Source: Escherichia phage vB_EcoM_PTE-Eco05 | DNA length: 64,000 nucleotides | Direction: 5' to 3' (one strand) | Sequence record: PQ306573.1 | Shown here: positions 40,553 through 53,308 of the stretch, piece after piece | How positions within the stretch are numbered: the first letter of the stretch is position 1 | Layout: every line of letters starts with the position of its first letter | The notes under the pieces: generated by a model | What the model was told of the DNA's origin: nothing | The model's input: the letters and a program-made list of their open reading frames with translations, nothing else | Databases searched by the model: none | Program-made: the position numbers and the translations under genes

Positions 40553-40882
40553 ATGAATAAGCTGAATATTATTAACGAACTTCGTAAATGTGCAGAACCT
40601 ACTCAGGAAGGATGGGATATTTGGTACCACGGGGCTTATTTAGGGACAATTGTAAAGATTAAAGCAGGCCAATATACGGTTATTCGTGAAAATAATGACG
40701 CACCATTTGGCCTTCGTAAAAACTACATGGCAGCGATCAGTTCATTTGTTGATGCAGCTTACGAAATCTATAAAGAAGATTATAAAGAATATCAGCAGTC
40801 ACAACCGGTTATTCGTTCGATTGGTGTAAATAAACAAGCACAAAAATCTATTTGGCAACGTATTAAAGGATGGTTTAAATGA
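40553..40882 (+). CDS. Hypothetical protein (109 aa)
   Basis: Track ORF 40532..40882 trimmed to ATG after gaggaatacata. Confidence 0.5.
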
Positions 40883-41340
40883 AAACTTTTAAAGAACGTT
40901 TAGCTCTGTTAGATAAAGCTTTGTCGCGTGAGACTCCGGAAAGTCTGGCTGCTAAATTAGCTTCTTACGGCGGCGAATATACAGAACAAAATGTTTTAGA
41001 TGAAGTTCCTGAAATCTGTTGGCAGACTCTGTATTGGGATGAAAACCAAAAGTATCAACGTCGAATTGTCTGTGCAGCCAACCGTTTTAAATTAAAAGAT
41101 GGACGAACTCTTATTATTCCAGGTGCTCGTCATTATTCTAAAGATATGGCAGAAGTTTTAGATGTAGTTAAACCTCAATTAGTTACTCAACAAGTTTGTG
41201 GTGACGACCAAGGCTTTATCGACCAATATAGTAATTATTGGACACGTGAAGAAGCAATGATTATTGCAACTTACGCTGGACAAGTACGTATTGAACGTGG
41301 TGGTAATGAAAAAGAACTTTACTCTGAGGACCTTTACTAA
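40879..41340 (+). CDS. Hypothetical protein (153 aa)
   Basis: ATGA overlap with upstream gene. Confidence 0.5.
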
Positions 41341-42676: not shown

Positions 42677-43336
42677 TTATTTAGCCCGCCCTAATATCCT
42701 TGCTGCTTGGTTGCATATTGCAGCCAAGCGTTCTTCATTTAACACATCCGACCCCTTATACCAATACATAGAAACAGTTCCAGCATATATGTTATCCAAA
42801 TTGAAGTAAGGACAACTATACATATACGCCAGTTCCGGAGTTTTTGATTTGGTAGGTAAGAAAGCAAAATCTGTTTTAGAAGTAAAGTGAAGTCCACTTA
42901 AATGGACCGAATATTCTGCTGTCGTTTTATCAACAGGAAATCCTCCCATAGATTTTTCAGTTACTGTGCTAGGTAACTTACCTTCATACGCAATAAGGTC
43001 GACGAAATAATTTAGATTTTTAGGTCTGAAAGAATACACCGAACTAAAATCCGCCCTTGATGTGACGTGGACTATTTGTAGTTGTTCTAAAGCCGCAGAT
43101 TCAAATCGTGTATTTCTTTCTTTTTGAATTACTTCTGTGTAAGTATCATATTTCGACCTCACGTAATAATCCATAAAAATATTCCCTTTGTACCATATTA
43201 GTGCCATTAGGAACAAAAGAACTACAACAGCAACTCTTGAAATAAGAATATTTCCGGAGGCGTTATCTTTGAAAATGCGGTCTAGCAACCCAAATAAAAT
43301 ATCACTAGGCGAAAATGATACTTTTGGTGCTGCCAT
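42677..43336 (-). CDS. t: Holin T (class III holin, lysis-inhibition sensor)
   Basis: Track ORF 42677..43348; second ATG (MAAPKVSFSP...) chosen because the first ATG lies inside the gggagg RBS; single N-terminal TM helix. Confidence 0.85.
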   Translation of the reverse strand: MAAPKVSFSPSDILFGLLDRIFKDNASGNILISRVAVVVLLFLMALIWYKGNIFMDYYVRSKYDTYTEVIQKERNTRFESAALEQLQIVHVTSRADFSSVYSFRPKNLNYFVDLIAYEGKLPSTVTEKSMGGFPVDKTTAEYSVHLSGLHFTSKTDFAFLPTKSKTPELAYMYSCPYFNLDNIYAGTVSMYWYKGSDVLNEERLAAICNQAARILGRAK

Positions 43337-43355
43337 ATTACCTCCCATTTATCAA

Positions 43356-43363
43356 TATTTATA
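43356..43363 (-). promoter_or_regulatory. Late promoter TATAAATA for holin t (minus strand)
   Basis: Plus-strand tatttata is the reverse complement of TATAAATA, about 20 nt upstream of the t start. Confidence 0.5.
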
Positions 43364-43381
43364 ATTGAGAGGTATTATCGT

Positions 43382-44155
43382 TTAAATCCAGGAGCCGTAG
43401 ATTGTGCCTGTAGCACCCCATGACGGTGAACTTCCGAATACTGCTCTGCCAGGAGAACCACCGCCGGATCTAGATAAGTGTTTACCCCATCCATCTCCGC
43501 CCCGACCTCCAGCATCACCGCCATTGCCTCCGCCGTATTGGGAAGTGTAACCGGCACTGCCCGGGGCGTCATAACTAGCATTACCGCCAGGCCAATTAAC
43601 GCCACCGCCGCCGAGGCCAAATGGTCTGCCGCCACCGCCACCTGCTGTAGCATTTGGCGCCCAGCTATTCTGTAATGACACTGCACCACCACCACCACCA
43701 CCTGATGCAATAACGCCATAGTTCCAAATACGAAGTCTTCCGCCGATATCATTTTGGATTACATCGCCACCATTTGTGCCTGGGTTTCCGTTTACAGTAC
43801 CGTTACCACCTCGTCCCCACATATGAACTCCACCATGAATATTCAAAGTAACATATTCATTTGGCGTATCGCCATACATAAAGAATAATGGAACATCTTT
43901 ACTATATGATACTAAATTTCCAGTGATATTAAACACTATAGGTGCACTACCTGCCTCAAAACATCTATCTCGGAACCATTGACCATTGAAGTTATGGTCT
44001 GCTCCAAGTGTGTGAATTACTTCAACAGATCGACCTATCATATTACTCATCCAAAACGGAATTCCCATTCTCAATCTCTGTGCGGCACCACCCATCCAAT
44101 TTTGTCCTGTATTAACTACTGCAGACGATCCTACCCACGGTCCTGTTACTGCCAT
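43382..44155 (-). CDS. 38: Tail-fibre adhesin gp38, T2-type (glycine-rich, tip-bound receptor-recognition protein)
   Basis: 257 aa from ATG after ggagg RBS (track ORF begins at a TTG at 44167); conserved N-terminus plus poly-Gly blocks (GGGGGG, GGGGG) separating short variable segments. Confidence 0.8.
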
Positions 44156-44185
44156 ATAAACCTCCAAGGGCCGAAGCCCCTCTTA

Positions 44186-47100
44186 TTATTTTAACAATGA
44201 TTTAACTAATGCTTTAAGTTCTTCAATTTCTGATTTAAGTTCCGCAATTTCTGTAGTATGTTCATTTATTGCAGCTGTATTTAAACCAATTACACCGTTA
44301 TAGTTCAAACGAAGTAAAGCTTCGCCATCGGGGTCACCTTCAACTAATTCTGGTAAAATAGCTTGAACTTCTTGGGCTATCAAACCGGCGTTAGGTTCCC
44401 ATTTCTGATTGCCTTCTTCGTCCGTTCCACGTTTCTGCATATAAGTGTAACCGTTAATTTTAGAAAGCTTCTCAGAAGCATTTTCAAATTTAACAAGGTC
44501 TTTTTTAACACGAATATCAGAACGGACATAAACATCACGGACAAACGTTGAATAACTATCATTTGCCTGAACGAGATGCCCATGAGAAACGATAGCTCTT
44601 CCAACTTCTGTCCAAAAAGCACCGGTTGAATCCCAAAGCCCAGGATGAGATTGATAGCCTGCTCCCCAGTTTGCAATATGTATACCATTGGCAACCATAT
44701 TGATTCGGCCGTCACCACCATGAACTAATCCGGTGTCATTATCACCAATAACAACACATGCGCCTGTCCATGCAGGGTCACCTCCACCAGCTGATATTCT
44801 TACTCCAGCTTTAACCATGTCAGGAACGTACATGTTTCCATTATGGTGGAATTCGAAGATAGCTTGTGGGTCGGAACCGTTTTCCTGATTACCTACACGA
44901 ATAATACCTTGTGCCCAGTTATTAGGAATGCGTCGCATACCAAAATCAACACCAGATACGTATCCATCATTCGTAATAACAGATTTTCCTTTGATAATTG
45001 GATAATAACTATCATTACCGACGTAGCCAAAATCCACAAATACGGGAGCTTCCTGGCGCCATTGATTTCCCCAATCGCCGGCCTGGTGTGCGGTCCAGAC
45101 CGACCCATTTATATAAATTCGGTCCCTATTAAAATTAAAAGTGGCAGTCCCTTCCGGGTTTAAAGCAATATCACCACCATTATTAACATATATGCCTGAT
45201 CTATTTTGGAAACTATAAAACGATATGGCATTATCAGCACCACCATTACCTACATACCAGTTATCAACGCCTGCTTTTTGTCCTTTCAAATAGCCAGATT
45301 CGGTTGCCGTGCTATTAATAACGATGGCATCAGAGTTTGCATTAAGAGTTAAGCGACCTGTCATCGTGTCGCCTTCTTTAGAAACACGGGTAGCTATTGC
45401 ATCGCGAATATTTGTAGTGTCTCCTGCTGAAGTAAACGATTTCCAAATATCCGAGAAAATATTACCATTACGAGCAATAGTAGCTTCACCGCCGCCGACC
45501 TGAACGTTATCTGGGAAGTTAACAGTACCGTCTTGATTAAAACGAGACGTATGGCCTTGTGAACCATCTTCTTTCAGATGATGAATAACGAATGTACCCG
45601 AACTAATTTCAGTACCTAAAGACCAAACAGCTTTACCATTTAAAAACTTCTGTTTAACAATAGGATAATATTTGCTTACAGCATCATCATCAATTTCCTG
45701 GAAAATAGGAGCCGCTTGAGCATATTGAATATCATAACCACCAGCGCCTGCGCCATGACCAGTAAATTTAATATAGCCGTTTGCTGCGAACGTATTGTAA
45801 CTTGATTGTAAATCTGGAATAGTAACTTTACCAGTATCTAAAGCCATACTAAACGGGCGAAGTGGACCGATATCACCATTTTTGCCTTCACCATAAGCAG
45901 TCGGAATAATATGAAGACTACCTTCTGAACGTCTAAAAATGGCTCCATAATCTGCGTTCCAAATACGAAGCGCATTCACTGCTCCAGATGAAATTTCGCC
46001 TGTTGTGTGAACTCCTCTATTTCCAGCAGTAACACCAGATGATTCAAATGAACCGTTAACGTTCATTTCTACTTCACCTGTTGTAAGTCTTTGAATATAG
46101 CTCATCCAACTAGTTGCATCAGAAATTTCCATGACGTTTTTACGATTACCTACACTAGGATTAGTAAACGTATTGCCCCACACAGAAATTGTCATATTAT
46201 CAACTGAACTAGCTCCGGTCGTGTTACCTCTAAACATCAGTGTAGAAGCATTATTTCTACCATCGATATTAACAGAACCACCAATAACGTCAATATTACC
46301 AGGAGTAACTAACAAACCGCCGTGAGTATTAATGTTTGTGGTACCCTTGCCGCGGAAATAATGATGATAGTTACCGCCTTGATAATATCCTAAAAGAGTC
46401 TGACCATCTCCAAACGCGTTATTATCGTGATATGTCACGACAGTAGCGAGAGCATAGTTTTCAGTTGGAGGAGTAGTTAAATCGGTTCCGTTAGTAGAAT
46501 ATCCAGCTACAAATTTTCTTAGGCTAGTTGTTTCGCTGGGACTAAATAAAAATGTTTTCGTTCCATTATTAACGCTAAAATAATATCCATCTTGATGCCA
46601 TTTAAATCCAGTATCATTATCGCCAAGAGAAATTGAAGCAGTCCCTAATTCAGAGTATCCTTTATTGCCACCAGGAGTACCAACAGAAATAGAATGGCCT
46701 GCTTTCAATCCACCTGACCAGGTAAACGACCAAAGATAAGTGTCTAAGCCATCTCCAGTATACCAAGTTATTCCATCATTATCTTTAACTTCATGGAATA
46801 CACCAGCGCCTACAGCATTGCGCATAACACGGAGATGATTAATAGCAGTAGTGCTTTCAGACAATGGAACGTTGTCTGCCATAGAATAAATGTCATAATC
46901 GCTCGTAGATTTATTATTAGTAATAACTCTATTTGTCAAAATCTGAGGAGTTGACATAGATTTCCATGCTGATACTTCAGGTGAAGTAAATAGTCCACTG
47001 CCCGAAAATGCATAGGTGCTTTCATCACCAGCGGCGTAGTCTTTAACGCGGATATTAACTACTTGCGTAGTTAATCCATCATTAGCCGGTGCATAAATAA

Positions 47101-47497
47101 TGCCACGTTCACGATCAGCCGAATCATGAAAACGAACATGTGCTGTACCTGAACTTTTTGTAATAAGTTCACCGCCTTCGGTCATAATCTGCCCAGCGGC
47201 AATAATATCACGAGTTACTCGAGCAATACCGGTTAAATTAAAATTACCTGTCTGAGTGAAGGTGCCATTTAAAGTATAATCGCCAGTTTGGTTATAATTG
47301 CCAGTATGAATAACATTCCCGTCAATACTACCACCTTTAGCAAAACCCAGATCAATAATATTTCCTTGGTCATCTTTAGTAAAAAGTACACGGTCTTTTA
47401 AGTTTATAGCCAATTCACCTTCGGCTAATACTGAAGCGGCAGGACGTGCTCCTGCAGTTTTGCTTCTTTTAAATTGTATTTGTTTTAAAGTAGCCAT
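44186..47497 (-). CDS. 37: Long tail fibre distal subunit gp37 with C-terminal intramolecular-chaperone-like domain
   Basis: 1103 aa; N-terminus MATLKQIQFKRSK...; C-terminal roughly 110 aa ...DIRVKKDLVKF...NYNGVIGLNTAAINEH...EELKALV resembles autoproteolytic chaperone domains. Confidence 0.88.
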   Translation of the reverse strand: MATLKQIQFKRSKTAGARPAASVLAEGELAINLKDRVLFTKDDQGNIIDLGFAKGGSIDGNVIHTGNYNQTGDYTLNGTFTQTGNFNLTGIARVTRDIIAAGQIMTEGGELITKSSGTAHVRFHDSADRERGIIYAPANDGLTTQVVNIRVKDYAAGDESTYAFSGSGLFTSPEVSAWKSMSTPQILTNRVITNNKSTSDYDIYSMADNVPLSESTTAINHLRVMRNAVGAGVFHEVKDNDGITWYTGDGLDTYLWSFTWSGGLKAGHSISVGTPGGNKGYSELGTASISLGDNDTGFKWHQDGYYFSVNNGTKTFLFSPSETTSLRKFVAGYSTNGTDLTTPPTENYALATVVTYHDNNAFGDGQTLLGYYQGGNYHHYFRGKGTTNINTHGGLLVTPGNIDVIGGSVNIDGRNNASTLMFRGNTTGASSVDNMTISVWGNTFTNPSVGNRKNVMEISDATSWMSYIQRLTTGEVEMNVNGSFESSGVTAGNRGVHTTGEISSGAVNALRIWNADYGAIFRRSEGSLHIIPTAYGEGKNGDIGPLRPFSMALDTGKVTIPDLQSSYNTFAANGYIKFTGHGAGAGGYDIQYAQAAPIFQEIDDDAVSKYYPIVKQKFLNGKAVWSLGTEISSGTFVIHHLKEDGSQGHTSRFNQDGTVNFPDNVQVGGGEATIARNGNIFSDIWKSFTSAGDTTNIRDAIATRVSKEGDTMTGRLTLNANSDAIVINSTATESGYLKGQKAGVDNWYVGNGGADNAISFYSFQNRSGIYVNNGGDIALNPEGTATFNFNRDRIYINGSVWTAHQAGDWGNQWRQEAPVFVDFGYVGNDSYYPIIKGKSVITNDGYVSGVDFGMRRIPNNWAQGIIRVGNQENGSDPQAIFEFHHNGNMYVPDMVKAGVRISAGGGDPAWTGACVVIGDNDTGLVHGGDGRINMVANGIHIANWGAGYQSHPGLWDSTGAFWTEVGRAIVSHGHLVQANDSYSTFVRDVYVRSDIRVKKDLVKFENASEKLSKINGYTYMQKRGTDEEGNQKWEPNAGLIAQEVQAILPELVEGDPDGEALLRLNYNGVIGLNTAAINEHTTEIAELKSEIEELKALVKSLLK

Positions 47498-47505
47498 AAG
47501 TCCTC

Positions 47506-48162
47506 TTAATAATAGCCGAAATCTTGAACAGAATCCTTAATAACAATTTGGTCAAATCGTGGAACATGTGAGGGTTGAGATGCAGGATTCTGTGAGAAAA
47601 AGTTTGGGGCAGTTAGCGCGCCGGTCATCGTATCTCCTGAACGGAGTACACGACTGTTTGCATTAGCATTAACTGTATTTATTTGACTATCAACATAATC
47701 TTTGCGAGTAAGGTCGTAATTATTTAAAGGTGCTAACGTTGTGGCTCTGAATTGAGATGCTTCAATAACGCCTTTAGAACTTATATTACCGGTGCGAGTA
47801 TCAATTACAACAGTTCTTTCACCTGTACCTTGAGATGATTTAAACCCAATACCATACCACGAAACAATATCCATGTTTGTTTGGTCGAATGTCGCGGCGT
47901 CAGCACCACCAGAAAAAATACCATTCGTTTGGTCATCTGCTGTTTTGACTGCAACACCTTCGTTAAAGATTACCTTTTTGAGATATGTCCCACCATTTGC
48001 TTTAGATACGAAATCGTTATCAGCCGCTTTTGGCTTGTTATATTCGGTGTATAATTTAAATGTTTTATATAGGATGTCATCGCCAGCTGGCATTAAAGGA
48101 AAATTGCCTTGATGCCATATGACGGAACCACCAACTGTACTTCCGGCTTTTAAATCGGCCAT
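47506..48162 (-). CDS. 36: Long tail fibre hinge connector gp36
   Basis: Track ORF 47506..48213 trimmed to ATG (MADLKAGS...) after aaggaga RBS; late promoter upstream. Confidence 0.8.
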   Translation of the reverse strand: MADLKAGSTVGGSVIWHQGNFPLMPAGDDILYKTFKLYTEYNKPKAADNDFVSKANGGTYLKKVIFNEGVAVKTADDQTNGIFSGGADAATFDQTNMDIVSWYGIGFKSSQGTGERTVVIDTRTGNISSKGVIEASQFRATTLAPLNNYDLTRKDYVDSQINTVNANANSRVLRSGDTMTGALTAPNFFSQNPASQPSHVPRFDQIVIKDSVQDFGYY

Positions 48163-48188
48163 TTCGTGTCTCCTTATTAATATTAAAG

Positions 48189-48196
48189 TATTTATA
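48189..48196 (-). promoter_or_regulatory. Late promoter TATAAATA for gene 36 (minus strand)
   Basis: Reverse complement of plus-strand tatttata lies between the gene 35 stop and the gene 36 RBS. Confidence 0.5.
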
Positions 48197-48221
48197 CGCG
48201 AAAAGGAGACCAAAGTCTCCT

Positions 48222-49346
48222 TTATTCTGTGTACTCTTTAAATTCCTGCCCAAATACCTTACCTGTGTCGTTAGATAACTGAGTAGGCAAGTCCATTATA
48301 TCATTACCGGTTAATGATTCATCAATGTAATTAACACGAATACCGTTTATACCAAACTCGGCGGGTTTTGCTATACTTCCGTTACATGATACTTCAGTGA
48401 AAATAACATTTCTTAGTCCACCTTGACCGACTGAGGCCGTACGGTAACAATATACTGTAAAGCCATCAGCTTCAGCTGGTATTTCAACGTATTCTTCATA
48501 TAGCTTCCACTCCCGGGCAGTTCCATCAAAGTTTATATCTTTAGATGATATAGGAGAGCTAGATGGAGACTTAAAGAAACGAATTGAAAGTCTTGTGGTT
48601 CCTTCCTCTAATAATTCTTCATCAGCCATTAATTGAAATTTCAAATAAAGAAAATCTGTAGGCTTTAATCCATAGTTTGCGATAGGAGTAACAAGGGATG
48701 ATGTAGGCATCCTTTTTATTTCATTGTTAGTTCCTCCAACAGGAGATAAAAACGTTTCTAGAGCTTCATATGTACGTCTAGGATAGCCGGTAGCACCTAT
48801 ATCAGCAATAGAGTCATATACAATATCTAATGGAGTTGCGTAATCAGAAATTGTTTTCTTATTACTGTATTTTATGTGTTCTAATGCAATAGTATTTTTA
48901 CCTGAAACATAAAACGCTGAATATGAAATATCAACAAGACTAGCAACTTCAATCGACGGTATAACTGAACTCCCAGCAGCTTTAAACCATTCAATTATTT
49001 CTGGCGGCAAATTAAATTTGTTATTAGAAATAAATGCGAAAATGAAATTATCTGCGTATGTGTTAACAAACGAAATAAATGCAGCTGAAGTTGCATTATT
49101 TGTAGGCGCAAAATTGTATAATTTACTATCAACTATAGTTCCATTTTCCGGATTTATCACCCTAACATTTAGTCCAATACCAAAAGACTGCAACCCTAAA
49201 GGCTCATTTTGGAATAAAATATACGGATTAGTTGTTGAAAGCGGGCATGAACCCGCTATACTTAGCTTAAATCTAACTGAATTGCTTTCCGATAAAAACG
49301 GCGTTTGGACGTATCCCTGTCCAAACCTTGCCATAAATTTTTCCAT
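48222..49346 (-). CDS. 35: Long tail fibre hinge connector gp35
   Basis: 374 aa; MEKFMARFGQGYVQTPFLSES... start; synteny 34-35-36-37. Confidence 0.85.
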   Translation of the reverse strand: MEKFMARFGQGYVQTPFLSESNSVRFKLSIAGSCPLSTTNPYILFQNEPLGLQSFGIGLNVRVINPENGTIVDSKLYNFAPTNNATSAAFISFVNTYADNFIFAFISNNKFNLPPEIIEWFKAAGSSVIPSIEVASLVDISYSAFYVSGKNTIALEHIKYSNKKTISDYATPLDIVYDSIADIGATGYPRRTYEALETFLSPVGGTNNEIKRMPTSSLVTPIANYGLKPTDFLYLKFQLMADEELLEEGTTRLSIRFFKSPSSSPISSKDINFDGTAREWKLYEEYVEIPAEADGFTVYCYRTASVGQGGLRNVIFTEVSCNGSIAKPAEFGINGIRVNYIDESLTGNDIMDLPTQLSNDTGKVFGQEFKEYTE

Positions 49347-49354
49347 ATAACCTC

Positions 49355-52300
49355 TTATTCAACCCATATAAATTTAACTGTTTTGTTAACCGGGTCTGGA
49401 ACAATTCTCACATTTCCTAATTGTAAGAAGTCTCGAACAGTAAGGTTTCCAATAACAGCATTATCAGATGGGATAGCACCGACATCGCTAGGTGAAGGTG
49501 GGTTGCCACTATCAAATACCATTGCAAATGAAGTCCAAGCATCTTTATTTTTCTGCCAGGTACGAGTATAACGAATACTACCACCATTTGCACCTGTAGG
49601 ATAACAAATCCAATCCTGATAAAGCGAATCTAAGCTATTGCCGAATTGAGTCAAAGTACCAGGATATTTAATTTCTTGGTCACGGTTACCTTTGTTATCA
49701 CGCGTCCAGTATCCAGGGAATTGGCTATATACAGCAGAATCGTTAATGTCAATAGACCAAAAACCTACAGTAGAAGCTGTTGGTTTATCGGTATAAACAG
49801 TGGCAGTTTGAACGCCGTTAGAAATAATTCTGTTATTTACAGTTAACCCACCGGTAGTTATTGTTGCACCACTTGTGATTTGAACACCATTGTCAAGACG
49901 AACTAAGCCTGTGGCGTTGTTAATCGTGATCGGGCGTAAGTTATTAAACGTCCCGGTCTGGTCACCTGAGTTAGTTAATGCAATATAAGAACTGTTACCA
50001 GCGTTATAAAGCATAACACCATAGTTACCGTTAATAGCTCTGAATGCAATAGGAGAACTAGAAACAATTTCGCCTGTAGCACTAATAGGCCCGGTAAAAG
50101 TAGAAACACCTGTAACATTTAATCCATTTGTAGAAACAATACCTGTTGAATAAAGTGTTCCATTAATATTAAATGATACTTTATTATCAGCAGCGCGCTG
50201 AGAATAGAAATGGTATCCGGTTTCGTCACCCGCTTCAAATACTGTATCACGGGCACCATCTGTAGCGCTATTGCCCCATGCTCTAACAACGAAATTCTCT
50301 TTATTACTAAGAGATTGGGTTCCTTTAGTGAAAACTATTTCGGAACCGCTAGAGTCATTAAGAGTTAATCTACGAGTAACAGATGCTTCGGAACCAAAAG
50401 AAGCAGTGCTTGTAGATACTAAAGGAGCACTCAGGTTGGTCTGTTTAGTAAGACTTAAAGAACCATTAACCGTCTGGTCGATGTCTCTACGGATGAACTG
50501 AAGAGAATCTAGACCATCTAACAAATTACTATCAGCTGCTTTAGCTTTCAACGGTAAGTAGTTAGCAAGTACACGGTTTAATTCATATGGAGAAATAGCA
50601 TAACTATTTTTCTCATAAAGATTCAAATCCTGGGTATTACCTTGAGTATCGTCACCGACAAATGTAATAGAACCAGATGAAGTTTTAACGAATCCACGAA
50701 TTGCCGTAGTAGCAGTCCATGATGGTTCTGATTGAACAATCCATTTTAAATTCTTAGGTGATACAGCAGTATTAGCAGAAGTTCCCGTTACAGTTTCATC
50801 TTGAGTAGCAACCTTAATCACGCCTTCAGACGTTTCAGTGGACTTAGTCCCTAAAAGCTTTTTAGGAGTAATAAGAACATCATCTAAAGTTCCTGCATTA
50901 GATTCTGCCTGGGTCGCTACGCGAAGTGTACCGCGTTGTGTTTCATTTGCTTTAGAAATATCAAGAGTATAATGGTTCCACAAGGTTCCTTCTTCAATAA
51001 GTCCGGAATCAGAATTAACACTGGTACGGTCAGAAGAATCAAAATGAGTTTTAATTTTCAGTGGAGACGAGATACGAGTATCGTCAGTTCCAGTATCAAA
51101 TTCAACTTGCGTAGCAATTTCGGCTATGCCAGATAATCCTTCCGTAGCTTTCCTATCATTTAACGTCTTAGGCGTTACTGCTCTAGTATAATCAGTTCCA
51201 GTGTTAGTTTCTGCTTGCGTAGCAATTTCAATTAAACCAATACGACCATCAGTAGAAGTTTTCTTATGCAGAGTTTCAGGGGTCACTACAGCATTAGCCC
51301 AACCGGCTTGTGATTCGCCAGCGATAACTTCACTTTCAATAGCAAGAATTACTGCACCCTGCTGAGTAGGGGTAGCTTTATACTGGTCAAGAGCCTTTGG
51401 AGAAATAGTTAAATTATCTACGGCTTTGTTATAAACGTTAGTCCCAGCATTACCGCGAATAGTAGCAGCTGTAGTACCAGTCGTAGATGTGTATTTTACA
51501 ATACCAGATAAAACTTCAGAACCTTGACGGGCATCCAATTTCTTAGGAGTAATAATAGTGGTATCATCTGTGCCAGCATTAGTTTCAGCCTGAGTTGCAA
51601 CTTCAGCAACACCTCTACGGGTTTCAGTTGCTGTACGTTCATTCAATTTCTTAGGAGAAATAATCAAATCATCCTGGAATGCAAAATCGGTATTCTGGTT
51701 AACTTGTGCAGTTGTTGCAATACGAGCAATACCACGACGAGTTTCAGTTGCTGTACGATTTGCTAATGTTTCTGGAGTAATAGCCAGTTCTTTACCAGGA
51801 GCATTTTCTAAATCAACATTTGCTTGCGCTTGAGAAGCAAGAGCAATAACACCTAAACGAGCTCGAGTTGTATTGCTCGATGCATCGACTCGTTCGACGG
51901 TTACAGTGTTTTGTTGAACTACCCAATATTTTGTTTCAGATGAATAATCTTCTATATAAGCTAACTCAAGTACAGGTACATACGAAGTATCACCATTAAA
52001 TTCCAGCTCACTAACAGAAACCCATTGTGCATCAGGTGGATACTCCGAACGTTTTGGGAACTGTAATAAAGAAATACTGCTAGCAATTGTATCGCCTTCA
52101 GCAGCTTTAATTTTTACAGTTTGCCCTTTACGCATGTAATTCAACGATATTTTAACAGTATCGCCAGACAAAATATCTGTAGGCAAAGTAAGATTTACCG
52201 TCGAGATTGTATTATTATCAGTTCCAAAAACAAGAACTTCTTCATTAGGGTGTAAATCAGTATCATTACGAACTATACGTAAACGAGATTTCTGGTCACC

Positions 52301-53188
52301 TTCCCAAACTCTCCACAAACTAGATGCTGCATCAAAAATAAAAAGAGCATCAGCAAAATTACGTCCTTCTGCTACATGAACACCGGCTTCTCGTATAGAA
52401 GTTGTATCATCGTAAGTTTTGACAATTGTGTGATATAATGGGTTTAATTTGTCTAAATCCACTAAATTAATAATATCGCCATTATTAGCATTACGAGGCA
52501 ATGTAATATTAATAGGAGCGGCTGATGTAAAACGTCGAATGATAAAATCATTAGGTTGCGCTTGATATGGCGTAGCAGGAGTTACTGTGACTGCATTACG
52601 TTCGTAATCAGAAACATACATTTGCCATAGGCGGTTGCTAAAAATGAAGACCATTTTAGATTTTGGGTGCGTCATTAAAACTGAACGAACCTGTTGTCCT
52701 CTAAAGTTTACAATACTTTGAGCCGCTGCAGTAATTTGAACTTTTACATAGCCTACTCTACCGCCAATATCAGACAAAATAACTGTATCGCCATCTAAAG
52801 GATTTTGAGGCAAAGTGAAATTAATATCAGTGCCAGCTGAAGTATCAACCGCAATAGAGTTACCTACTGATAATTGGAAATCTCCGCCTTGAACTGTAAT
52901 CCATTCTGCATCAGCACGAGTTGCCTTCCATTTAGCCAAAGAGAAAGGGCCTGCCGGAGCTGGAATATCGCTTAAAGCTTGATAAAAACGATTATTATAA
53001 AGAACAATAAAATCTTTTGTATACGCGCGCGTCTCGTCATAATTCTGTACGGTGTTTTCTTGCACCAAAAAGTCAACGTTCACGCCATCGGTGCCAACTG
53101 TGCGGTCGGCAAGCGCAACGTTAACTATCTTATCACCGCCTGCGTCAAGACCATCTTCGGCCCTGAACTTACGTTTGATGTCAACCAT
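49355..53188 (-). CDS. 34: Long tail fibre proximal subunit gp34
   Basis: 1277 aa; repeated ...TPKKL...ATETRRG... motifs; late promoter upstream. Confidence 0.9.
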   Translation of the reverse strand: MVDIKRKFRAEDGLDAGGDKIVNVALADRTVGTDGVNVDFLVQENTVQNYDETRAYTKDFIVLYNNRFYQALSDIPAPAGPFSLAKWKATRADAEWITVQGGDFQLSVGNSIAVDTSAGTDINFTLPQNPLDGDTVILSDIGGRVGYVKVQITAAAQSIVNFRGQQVRSVLMTHPKSKMVFIFSNRLWQMYVSDYERNAVTVTPATPYQAQPNDFIIRRFTSAAPINITLPRNANNGDIINLVDLDKLNPLYHTIVKTYDDTTSIREAGVHVAEGRNFADALFIFDAASSLWRVWEGDQKSRLRIVRNDTDLHPNEEVLVFGTDNNTISTVNLTLPTDILSGDTVKISLNYMRKGQTVKIKAAEGDTIASSISLLQFPKRSEYPPDAQWVSVSELEFNGDTSYVPVLELAYIEDYSSETKYWVVQQNTVTVERVDASSNTTRARLGVIALASQAQANVDLENAPGKELAITPETLANRTATETRRGIARIATTAQVNQNTDFAFQDDLIISPKKLNERTATETRRGVAEVATQAETNAGTDDTTIITPKKLDARQGSEVLSGIVKYTSTTGTTAATIRGNAGTNVYNKAVDNLTISPKALDQYKATPTQQGAVILAIESEVIAGESQAGWANAVVTPETLHKKTSTDGRIGLIEIATQAETNTGTDYTRAVTPKTLNDRKATEGLSGIAEIATQVEFDTGTDDTRISSPLKIKTHFDSSDRTSVNSDSGLIEEGTLWNHYTLDISKANETQRGTLRVATQAESNAGTLDDVLITPKKLLGTKSTETSEGVIKVATQDETVTGTSANTAVSPKNLKWIVQSEPSWTATTAIRGFVKTSSGSITFVGDDTQGNTQDLNLYEKNSYAISPYELNRVLANYLPLKAKAADSNLLDGLDSLQFIRRDIDQTVNGSLSLTKQTNLSAPLVSTSTASFGSEASVTRRLTLNDSSGSEIVFTKGTQSLSNKENFVVRAWGNSATDGARDTVFEAGDETGYHFYSQRAADNKVSFNINGTLYSTGIVSTNGLNVTGVSTFTGPISATGEIVSSSPIAFRAINGNYGVMLYNAGNSSYIALTNSGDQTGTFNNLRPITINNATGLVRLDNGVQITSGATITTGGLTVNNRIISNGVQTATVYTDKPTASTVGFWSIDINDSAVYSQFPGYWTRDNKGNRDQEIKYPGTLTQFGNSLDSLYQDWICYPTGANGGSIRYTRTWQKNKDAWTSFAMVFDSGNPPSPSDVGAIPSDNAVIGNLTVRDFLQLGNVRIVPDPVNKTVKFIWVE

Positions 53189-53221: not shown

Positions 53222-53229
53222 CTATTTAT
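53222..53229 (-). promoter_or_regulatory. Late promoter TATAAATA for gene 34 (minus strand)
   Basis: Reverse complement of plus-strand tatttata, about 35 nt upstream of the gene 34 start. Confidence 0.55.
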
Positions 53230-53308
53230 AAATGAGTAAAAGACTATTTACGCTTTCGAACTAGTATGTTACTATGGTCTAAGTTGACTAACTGAACAAG
53301 AGGTTCAT

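Follow-up and report, generated by a model that had tools for sequence, protein, structure and literature searches.

A T2/S16-type gp37-gp38 module as the probable distal tail-fibre tip of an RB69-like Escherichia phage

Among T-even phages, the receptor of T2 is OmpF/FadL. The T2-type tip architecture is said to have been described by Riede in 1987, Trojet in 2011 and Dunne in 2018, and T2 gp38 is reportedly the prototype adhesin, going back to Riede et al. in 1987. For phage S16, PMC7917993, citing Dunne 2018, describes the last 113 residues of gp37 as an intramolecular chaperone (IMC) that is autocleaved, with gp38 docking on the newly exposed end. Three tryptophans of gp38 dock the S16 adhesin into gp37 (PMC6851490), and the glycine runs form polyglycine-II helices in both the S16 and the PP01 adhesin structures (PMC6851490, PMC12892980). 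In PP01, the substitutions Y209A/S/L abolish infectivity, as do A228D or deletion of Ala228 at the tip of loop E.

We analysed a window of 64,000 nucleotides of Escherichia phage vB_EcoM_PTE-Eco05 (PQ306573.1), in which an ORF scan confirmed gp37 and gp38 on the minus strand at 43382-47497, exactly where an earlier reading of the letters (the sequence-only reading) had placed both open reading frames. Very probably, this module belongs to an RB69-like T-even phage and is the distal tip of its long tail fibre, in the T2/S16 configuration. Nothing among the evidence gathered contradicts that architecture, which is textbook and already known; the tip is ordinary but for a few private changes in the gp38 loops. 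The tail-fibre genes stand in the canonical order 34-35-36-37-38-t, as in RB69-like (Mosigvirus) phage, with gene 38 following gene 37 directly and preceding holin t (holin T is among the Pfam matches to the neighbours of gene 38 in the window). The 37-38-t layout is common to RB69, RB51, FL31, T2, STP4-a, KRT47 and COW86c, and homology puts gene 36 at the same coordinates in RB69, RB51 and FL31. PHROGs assignments agree with the Pfam calls: gp37 corresponds to phrog_1699 over its full length (E 0) and gp38 to phrog_2056, annotated 'host specificity'. The Pfam, glycine-content and entropy values for the two proteins are far beyond chance. Coordinates of all features are collected in Table 1.

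Table 1 Features of the gene 36-37-38 region, in window coordinates
Feature	Position	Strand	Remarks
T4-type late promoter motif TATAAATA, upstream of gene 36	48189..48196	-	position
Gene 36, connector between gp37 and gp35	47506..48162	-	218 aa; Pfam Phage_T4_gp36, 3.4e-29
Gene 37, long tail fibre distal subunit	44186..47497	-	1103 aa and stop, then a second TAA
Predicted mature gp37, residues 1-992, shaft and distal beta-helical tip	44522..47497	-	6F45_A alignment
gp37 IMC (Peptidase_S74), residues 993-1103, 111 aa	44189..44521	-	Pfam PF13884, 6F45_A alignment, profile matches
S993-D-I-R-V-K998, candidate Ser-Lys catalytic dyad and cleavage site	44504..44521	-	invariance of S, D and K
GC-rich stem-loop with UUCG tetraloop	44166..44181	-	fold; between gp37 stop codons and gp38 ribosome-binding site
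gp38 ribosome-binding site GGAGG	44161-44165	-	downstream of the stem-loop
Gene 38, monomeric receptor-recognising adhesin (by homology)	43382..44155	-	257 aa and stop; Pfam, phrog and PDB matches
gp38 N-terminal attachment domain, residues 1-40, with Trp7, Trp20 and Trp35	44036..44155	-	Gp38_N match
gp38 Gly-rich region, residues 114-236, about ten Gly-rich runs	43448..43816	-	Gly runs, entropy map, PP01 loop mapping
Loop D, Y203-T-S-Q206-Y207	43535..43549	-	holds Q206 and private F207Y
Loop E, W223-G-K225-H-L-S-R229	43469..43489	-	holds private N225K

Translation of gp38 starts at ATG 44155 (MAVTGPW...), a position consistent with the homologues and preceded by the GGAGG ribosome-binding site, and not at TTG 44167 as in the mechanical ORF list. 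The intergenic stem-loop is conserved as a structure in 24 loci, with compensatory changes in its arms; it might act in mRNA stability, in processing or in attenuating gp38 expression. The three minus-strand copies of the T4-type late promoter motif each sit a short distance ahead of a gene (34, 36 and t), and none was found between genes 36, 37 and 38, so that 36-37-38 likely form one late transcription unit with gene 36 first. This argument draws on the position of the copies and not on the motif count, which across the whole window is not above chance.

In gp38, Pfam places Gp38_N (PF21721) at residues 1-40 (1.8e-21, 76.3 bits) and GP38 (PF05268) at residues 45-257 (6.3e-84, 281.6 bits), against a cut-off of 25 bits for both. 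W7, W20 and W35 align with the 'prong' tryptophans of S16 and are kept in most of 21 aligned sequences. Coverage by tblastn is graded, from full length through residues 1-142 to residues 1-44, and it is only the attachment domain that stays conserved as far out as Klebsiella, Cronobacter and SSU5 phages. Between and around this domain and the Gly-rich sandwich, a conserved beta-helix domain is predicted (about residues 46-113, 132-150 and 237-257), whose strand 132-150 interrupts the sandwich segments 114-131 and 151-236. The sequence-only reading had recognised the N-terminal attachment domain and the glycine blocks that separate variable segments, and both stand; as a small refinement, the beta-helix brings the number of domains to three and not two. 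Column entropy in the 21-sequence gp38 alignment is highest at residues 120-127, 158-171, 181-190, 200-207 and 221-230. PMC12892980 defines the loops of PP01; from an alignment to these, which has indels and gives residue equivalence good only to about one position, we placed five loops at about 120-125 (A), 161-170 (B), 184-188 (C), 203-207 (D) and 223-229 (E).

The porin that these loops would bind is most likely OmpF, judging from the nearest relatives. RB69 and RB51 need OmpF (PMC3157838), and Trojet et al. reported that FhuA and the LPS core are required by both as well. Of the relatives tested, FL31 is the closest; it shows weak OmpF/TolC dependence, with a drop of only one log on an ompF deletion mutant (PMC12032242). 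RB51 uses OmpF with Q206 as switch residue, and a change of Q206 to L in RB51/RB68-type gp38 converts OmpF to OmpW use (bioRxiv 10.64898/2026.04.02.716166). The window gp38 retains Q206 and is identical to RB51 in loops A, B and C. The receptor call is nevertheless uncertain because of four private substitutions in or near loops D and E, one of which adjoins residue 206. RB69, RB51 and FL31 lack all four of these non-synonymous changes (G200S, F207Y, N225K and A234S), as do 13 other members of the 90% cluster.

A possible, if less probable, reading is that gp38 has the same architecture and that the four changes have retargeted it, to a receptor other than K-12 OmpF or to another OmpF loop variant. 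Their absence from the cluster favours it, as do the OmpF-to-OmpW switch caused by a single change at the adjoining residue 206 and the alignment of Y207 and K225 with PP01 Tyr209 and Ala228, both critical for adsorption, although the indels in that alignment limit the equivalence. Non-synonymous to synonymous changes number 4:1-2 in codons 199-235 against 2:24-26 elsewhere when compared with RB51 and FL31 (Fisher p about 0.005, the region having been chosen post hoc), but the same test against RB69 gives only p = 0.054. Retention of Q206 and of the RB51 loops A-C also speaks against retargeting, and the F-to-Y and A-to-S changes are conservative. OmpF remains our preferred assignment, and the four changes, two of them aligned with PP01-critical positions, are the one mildly new point of the locus.

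The C-terminal end of gp37 bears out the expectation of a roughly 110-aa chaperone-like segment. Peptidase_S74 (PF13884) matches residues 993-1052 over profile positions 1-57 of 58 (E 9.6e-13; 48.7 bits, cut-off 22), and the domain occupies the extreme C-terminus up to the stop codon, 111 aa from Ser993. The junction DVYVR^SDIRVKK, with Ser993 and Lys998, aligns with the S16 site DLNVS^SDRRIKK. A (V/I)(R/T)^SDxRxK junction is found in all sampled gp37 upstream of a T2-type gp38, and its S, D and K do not vary among 8 divergent T-even IMC types, while the IMC bodies behind this common junction fall into several divergent types. A profile of these divergent IMCs matches the MYRF ICA 7DC3 (7.6e-11), the tail fibre 8JOV (1.4e-9), in which SDERLK aligns with the S993 motif, and the released GA-1 IMC 3GUD; the MYRF motif aligns as well, and residue 1 of the 3GUD chain is the Ser aligned to S993 (SDERHK). 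Against 6F45_A, gp37 residues 911-1103 align with E 1.1e-43, residues 911-992 falling on the trimeric beta-helix of the S16 gp37 tip. By homology, gp37 is predicted to cleave itself between R992 and S993, and from S16 we infer that the mature tip ending in the strand DVYVR would be the gp38 docking surface (PMC6851490, PMC7917993).

That the C-terminal domain instead stays uncleaved and contributes to receptor binding, with gp38 acting only transiently, is very unlikely. Some S74-family domains are indeed known from sequence only, but here both the dyad (Ser and Lys) and the junction as a whole are conserved, the chain of the released IMC 3GUD begins at the aligned Ser, and the homologous 113-residue IMC of S16 is reported to be autocleaved, with gp38 docking on the exposed end. 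A retained domain would moreover occupy the surface on which gp38 docks.

The contrast with T4 that the sequence-only reading had drawn was borne out. Gene order in T4 is 36-37-38-t-asiA, the same as in the window, whereas T4 gp37 ends in a Collar and Phage_fiber (His-x-His) needle that itself binds the receptor (residues about 785-1026), and T4 gp38, an assembly factor of 183 aa, is unrelated to that of the window. The window gp38 shows no similarity to T4 gp38 (BLASTP E 0.86), and gp37 aligns to T4 gp37 over residues 1-640 only (34% identity). Pfam finds in the window gp37 none of the Collar/Phage_fiber domains seen in T4 gp37 and in T4 gp37 no S74 domain, and at E <= 0.01 no PDB match links the window gp37 to the T4 gp37 tip. 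A T4-type tip, in which gp37 binds the receptor and gp38 is a chaperone absent from virions, is thus refuted at the sequence level. It is an extremely improbable reading, even though legacy product names for gp38 on RB69, ECP52, UPEC01 and JS10, such as 'distal long tail fiber assembly catalyst', would suit an assembly chaperone; the strong matches are to families of adhesins and to the solved adhesins of S16 and PP01, and the note in the RB69 record itself calls the T2-subfamily 'gp38' the adhesin.

Residues 116-257 of gp38 are 34.5% glycine, whereas residues 1-115 contain 13%; the runs include GGGGGG (152-157), GGGGG (172-176) and GGGG (182-185). Entropy is low at GRGGNG, GGGGGG and GGGGGRPFG, the Gly blocks being the most conserved columns of the 21-sequence alignment. 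gp38 aligns over its full length to the S16 adhesin 6F45_D (2.6e-50), and its residues 37-256 align to the PP01 adhesin 9V85 (2.3e-75); alignment to these crystal structures predicts a beta-helix and a three-layer polyglycine-II sandwich. We give virtually no credence to a low-complexity, disordered or collagen-like linker without a defined fold, which the glycine content and the alternative-frame ORFs open across the stretch might suggest, as the Gly runs match two crystal structures position by position, where they are polyglycine-II, and it is the spacers that vary and not the Gly blocks.

The T2/S16-type reading suggests the following course. Late in infection, genes 36, 37 and 38 are probably co-transcribed. 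gp37 would trimerise, with residues 993-1103 nucleating the folding of the trimeric beta-helix as an intramolecular chaperone, which then cuts itself off by means of Ser993 and Lys998, and cleavage would expose a flat trimeric tip. One copy of gp38 may cap this tip, its N-terminal helical bundle inserting Trp7, Trp20 and Trp35 into three equivalent gp37 pockets, and the rest of the protein would project as a small beta-helix and the three-layer sandwich. The conserved Gly-rich runs would serve as scaffold, and the five short variable loops at the far end would bind the outer-membrane porin. Host range could evolve through point mutations in the loops as well as through recombination within conserved sequence. 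Cleavage, 3:1 stoichiometry, location in the virion and receptor identity are here predicted by homology; a single gp38 copy at the virion fibre tip that binds an outer-membrane protein is what S16, PP01, RB51 and FL31 would lead one to expect.

Exchange by recombination, which had also been proposed, is well reflected in the ancestry of the module. Over its whole 4116 bp it is 93.7% identical in nucleotides to RB69 genes 37/38, and gp37 tip codons about 939-1006 are 100% FL31-like and only 73-82% RB69-like. Tracts resembling RB69, RB51 and FL31 form a patchwork within flanks that are about 99% RB69-like, which on sequence comparison is a recombination mosaic.

Compared with known systems, RB69 (AY303349 / NC_004928; Mosigvirus) has identical gene order and lengths (1103 and 257 aa), lengths also found in RB51 and FL31, and its flanks (gp34-36, t, asiA) are about 99% identical to those of the window. 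Its gp37 differs by 51 aa, concentrated in residues 600-992, and its gp38 by 11, six in the attachment domain (residues 4-19) and the others being L181I, G200S, F207Y, N225K and A234S in the window. The gp38 proteins of RB51/RB68 (Tequatrovirus) and FL31 (Mosigvirus) are of equal length and 97.7% identical, share loops A-C and Q206, and have G, F, N and A where the window has S200, Y207, K225 and S234; outside the module, identity to the RB51 genome backbone is only 50-85%. T2 gp38 carries both Pfam domains of the window protein and likewise sits between gene 37 and t, and T2 gp37 also ends in an SDIRLK-type IMC, although with a body of a different sequence type. At only 47.7% amino acid identity, however, T2 gp38 is more distant: by sequence the nearest gp38 relatives are RB51, RB68, FL31 and RB69, not T2.

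The S16 gp37-gp38 complex (6F45; Dunne et al. 2018) has the three-domain gp38 that is predicted here, with three Trp prongs and Gly-rich motifs and the same gp37 tip and IMC with an SDxRxKK cleavage motif. It differs in its variable loops and in its receptor, Salmonella OmpC; the window tip carries an 11-residue insertion (about 942-952) relative to S16, and the junction residue is Arg992 where S16 has Ser. The PP01 gp38 receptor-binding domain (9V85; Terasaki et al. 2026) has a beta-helix and a polyglycine-II sandwich to which those predicted for the window gp38 are very similar, with nearly collinear numbering, but binds O157 OmpC and differs in loops A, B, D and E from about residue 119 onward. 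More distant are other Peptidase_S74 IMCs (endosialidase CTD, GA-1 3GUD, MYRF 7DC3), found by profile or weakly by single sequence, which like that of the window gp37 lie C-terminal to a trimeric beta-helix, with a Ser...Lys motif at the start of the domain and a helical segment at its end; their passengers are a tailspike and a transcription factor, whereas that of the window is a T-even tail fibre.

The sequence-only reading had placed a tail-fibre tip module, gp37 and gp38, at 43382-47497; both genes lie on the minus strand, and these limits are exact, since the Mosigvirus relatives RB69 and FL31 and the Tequatrovirus relative RB51 share identical gene lengths and spacing across the module. 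The sole correction concerns the start of gp38, which is ATG 44155 (MAVTGPW..., with GGAGG 6 bases upstream) and not the TTG 44167 of the mechanical ORF list. Both genes stand in a late block of canonical T-even order, gp34-gp35-gp36-gp37-gp38-holin t, and their PHROGs assignments are concordant with Pfam. At the start of holin t (43336-43348), the mechanical ATG 43348 (MGGNMAAP...) overlaps the Shine-Dalgarno GGAGG, and the homologue-consistent start is ATG 43336 (MAAPKVSF..., 219 aa); the longer form is found in the RB69 record, the shorter one in RB51 and FL31. Residues 58-131 of the tail-fibre hinge protein gp35 match Pfam ILEI (interleukin-like EMT inducer / FAM3 fold; 30.2 bits, cut-off 27), an unexpected domain label for such a protein. 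The Gly-rich stretch of gp38 forms a GC bump (0.486 vs ~0.38) with strongly negative GC skew, and the alternative-frame ORFs across it (125 aa, 43375-43752, minus; 65 aa, 43478-43675, plus) are artefacts of stop-free GGN codon runs. No RNA was found in the whole window with Rfam at the gathering threshold or with ARAGORN.

Features of the tail-fibre block, with window coordinates
Feature	Position	Strand	Details
T4-type late-promoter motif TATAAATA	53223-53230	minus	just upstream of gene 34
gp34	49355-53188		T-even late block
gp35	48222-49346		T-even late block
T4-type late-promoter motif TATAAATA	48189-48196	minus	just upstream of gene 36
gp36	47506-48162		Pfam Phage_T4_gp36
gp37	44186-47497	minus	1103 aa; Peptidase_S74 at 993-1052; PHROGs 'long tail fiber protein distal subunit'
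gp37 codons ~706-806	45082-45381		identity: RB69 88-94%, RB51 53-67%, FL31 54-60%
gp37 codons ~939-1006	44482-44681		identity: RB69 73-82%, RB51 65-87%, FL31 100%
GC-rich stem with C(UUCG)G tetraloop	44166-44181	minus	between gp37 double stop TAATAA and gp38 Shine-Dalgarno
gp38	43382-44155	minus	257 aa; Pfam GP38 + Gp38_N; PHROGs 'tail fiber protein; host specificity'
T4-type late-promoter motif TATAAATA	43356-43363	minus	just upstream of gene t
holin t			beyond gp38 in block; Pfam Phage_holin_T

The last ~110 aa of gp37 had been read as chaperone-like, which is borne out: every sequence hallmark of an S74 autoproteolytic chaperone is present, as seen from the Peptidase_S74 match, a conserved junction, the invariant residues S993, D994 and K998, and profile matches to related domains. 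Residues 911-1103 align to the S16 gp37 tip construct (PDB 6F45, E 1.1e-43). A passage in PMC7917993, citing Dunne 2018, gives the last 113 residues of S16 gp37 as an intramolecular chaperone (IMC) autocleaved at DLNVS^SDRRIKK. The window sequence DVYVR^SDIRVKK aligns with this site, and the predicted cut falls between R992 and S993, releasing a 111-aa domain. We sampled 24 loci with T2-type gp38, including RB69, RB51, FL31, T2, STP4-a, KRT47, kvi, COW86c, Miro and 13 IMG/VR contigs; in all of them except one frame-broken contig, the gp37 encoded upstream of gp38 ends in (V/I)(R/T)^SDxRxK followed by an IMC. In sequence, the IMC bodies are of several divergent types, and the junction is kept nonetheless. 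An alignment of eight such types leaves S993, D994 and K998 invariant, S993 and K998 being a candidate Ser-Lys dyad. The corresponding profile matches PDB entries 7DC3 (MYRF ICA domain, 7.6e-11), 8JOV (another phage tail fibre, 1.4e-9) and 3GUD (released GA-1 neck appendage IMC, 1.4e-4); the chain in 3GUD begins with a Ser aligned with S993. This profile was needed, as the window IMC alone gave only marginal matches in the PDB, to 7DC3 and 8JOV (E ~0.02). Judged from these similarities, gp37 of the window phage would be expected to cleave itself. In the exceptional 155-kb contig (IMGVR_UViG_2974741249_000001), gp37 loses its frame shortly before the IMC, and only 128 codons are open in the frame that reaches the usual ...KSLLK end; either the contig is misassembled here or the gene carries a frameshift. 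Further upstream in the window protein, a domain is internally duplicated (44783-45100 and 45428-45775, residues ~800-905 and 575-690; 27% identity, E 1e-6), and residues 418-561 have a homologue in the gp34 C-terminal domain (4UXE, E 1.3e-12; Pfam Gp34_trimer).

For gp38, the fold is assigned through homology to two crystal structures, with full-length alignment at E <= 1e-50: S16 gp38 (6F45_D) aligns over the full length (2.6e-50) and the PP01 receptor-binding domain (9V85) over residues 37-256 (2.3e-75). Three tryptophans anchor S16 gp38 in its gp37 trimer (PMC6851490), and W7, W20 and W35 stand at the same places in the window protein; by homology we also infer the gp37:gp38 stoichiometry of the window phage. 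Glycine makes up 34.5% of residues 116-257 vs 13% of residues 1-115, and the Gly-rich runs that can be counted, about ten, equal in number the polyglycine-II helices of S16 gp38 (PMC6851490). When 21 sequences are aligned, the columns of the Gly blocks (GRGGNG 114-119, GGGGGG 152-157, GGGGGRPFG 172-180, GGxGG 208-213) rank among the best conserved, and entropy is highest between them (120-127, 158-171, 181-190, 200-207, 221-230). A tblastn survey of coverage across 893 phage records matched the full-length protein in close relatives, residues 1-142 only in a large group (70-87% identity), and only the attachment domain, residues 1-44, in Klebsiella phages, Cronobacter phages and SSU5; such graded coverage indicates that gp38 is modular. 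The reading of gp38 as a conserved attachment domain followed by Gly blocks with variable segments thus stands, with one refinement, namely the addition of a conserved beta-helix domain. This domain (~46-113, 132-150, 237-257) is assigned as the support from which the Gly-rich sandwich departs in two long excursions, the arrangement known from S16. In one IMG/VR contig (IMGVR_UViG_2974787500_000001), a Gly run and variable loop at alignment columns ~160-195 are tandemly duplicated (GGGGYYSPFSQMRLTF twice), an example of loop expansion through slippage or recombination at Gly-rich motifs.

The backbone at 20000-43300 shows 97% identity to AV110, APCEc01, ChristianSchoenbein and FL31, which marks the genomic background as RB69-like Mosigvirus. 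The module is 93.7% identical to RB69 across all 4116 bp; outside it the window is ~99% identical to RB69, and inside it the best match alternates among relatives. Over the stretch that covers the gp38 attachment domain and the 37/38 intergenic region (44082-44181), identity is 100% to RB51 and only 84% to RB69. The module is accordingly a mosaic of RB69-, RB51- and FL31-like tracts, in agreement with the easy exchange through recombination that had been proposed, and we read it as the recombinational shuffling long described at T-even adhesin loci (Trojet 2011, PMC3157838). Covariation of the gp37 tip with the gp38 attachment domain, as partners in docking, was considered and rejected because RB51 shares the gp38 N-terminus of the window yet has a divergent gp37 tip. 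A second mosaic junction lies outside the module at 40882-41281 (arn.3 region), where RB51 is 96-97% identical and RB69 and FL31 only 71-83%; identity returns to RB69-like from ~41480 on. In a collection of ~15 billion sequences, the exact gp37 protein was not found and the exact gp38 protein occurred in two Logan contigs only (SRR12795745, SRR12795782), which come from two independent sequencing runs and are 100% identical to the window in DNA.

OmpF is required by RB69, RB51 and SV76, along with FhuA and a complete LPS core (PMC3157838), and FL31 depends weakly on OmpF/TolC (PMC12032242). RB51 is retargeted from OmpF to OmpW by a single Q206L in HVS3 (bioRxiv 10.64898/2026.04.02.716166); Q206 (codon CAA) is kept in the window gp38, so that OmpF is the default predicted receptor. 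The same preprint reports that its stock of RB68, another Tequatrovirus relative, carries Q206L and attributes to this change a switch of receptor from OmpF to OmpW. We looked for this change in the GenBank record of RB68 (KM607004.1) and did not find it, since the deposited gp38 (301-1074) is identical to that of RB51 and has Q206; the record thus does not match the stock that was phenotyped. Four substitutions, G200S, F207Y, N225K and A234S, are private to the window when compared with RB69, RB51, FL31 and 13 more members of the 90%-identity cluster: at positions 200/206/207/225/234 the window reads S-Q-Y-K-S and all those sampled relatives G-Q-F-N-A. Loops A-E (PMC12892980) were mapped via a nearly collinear alignment with PP01, and the four changes fall in or beside contact loops D (~203-207) and E (~223-229), flanking residue 206. 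Codons 199-235 carry non-synonymous and synonymous differences at 4:1-2 vs 2:24-26 elsewhere in the gene (against RB51 and FL31), with Fisher p ~0.005 vs RB51 and FL31 and 0.054 vs RB69 for a region picked post hoc. Y207 aligns with PP01 Tyr209, and K225 with PP01 Ala228 at the loop E tip, both equivalences being good to about one residue because the alignment has loop indels. In PP01, Y209A/S/L abolish infectivity, as does A228D or deletion. The pattern in loops D and E suggests a host-range variant. With private changes in and near these loops, two at positions critical in PP01, and flanking the OmpF-to-OmpW switch residue, we tentatively entertain, as the less probable outcome, that the window gp38 is a natural variant of the OmpF-class adhesin of RB51/RB69 with altered receptor specificity, and that it may bind another porin or an OmpF with divergent loops.

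No TATAAATA motif lies between genes 36, 37 and 38, which therefore probably form one late transcription unit. The motif is not enriched in the whole window (5 found vs 7.25 expected), and its positions alone are informative; a scan of 43200-48400 for promoters and terminators found about as many promoter-like and terminator-like elements as shuffled sequence would give. All 24 loci retain the hairpin in the gp37-gp38 gap as a structure, changes in one arm being compensated in the other (GGGGC/GCCCC, GGGCC/GGCCC, GGGGGC/GCCCCC, GAGGGC/GCCCTC). Relative to RB69, RB51 and FL31, the window has a 1-nt deletion in the 3' arm. The 51-nt intergenic fold is no more stable than shuffles (z = -0.66), and the case for the hairpin is one of conservation and compensatory change. 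In the Miro record, the gap is annotated with a terminator, and the element could stabilise the mRNA, hinder its processing or act as an attenuator setting the gp38:gp37 ratio. A perfect 9-bp palindromic hairpin (AAAGGAGAC-CAAA-GTCTCCTTT) also occurs at 48202-48223, between the gp35 stop and the gene 36 late promoter.

The gp37-gp38 module determines which bacteria the phage can adsorb to and is therefore the part to read or engineer when host range is to be predicted or changed. The analysis corrects the legacy 'assembly catalyst' label still found on RB69-type gp38 records and provides a residue-level map of the window allele (cleavage site, docking tryptophans, loops A-E). The cluster of private loop substitutions is a possible natural test case for receptor-prediction models built from gp38 hypervariable segments.

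As had been proposed, the tip differs from that of T4 and resembles that of T2. T4 gp38 (183 aa) and the window gp38 are not similar in sequence (E 0.86), and T4 gp37, which has Collar and Phage_fiber domains without S74, is homologous over residues 1-640 only (34% identity); its tip entry was not returned by a full-length gp37 search of the PDB. T2 gp38, in contrast, carries both Pfam domains of the window protein, and the module is a standard T2/S16-type tail-fibre tip. The T2-type architecture was reportedly described genetically by Riede in 1987 and Tetart in 1998. It was also described genetically by Trojet 2011 (PMC3157838), and the S16 authors consider this tip commoner among T-even phages than the T4 arrangement (PMC6851490). 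Already known genetically and structurally (S16 6F45, PP01 9V85) and annotated routinely, the architecture itself teaches nothing new; new in the window are a mosaic gp37 and a rare gp38 allele of this known architecture.
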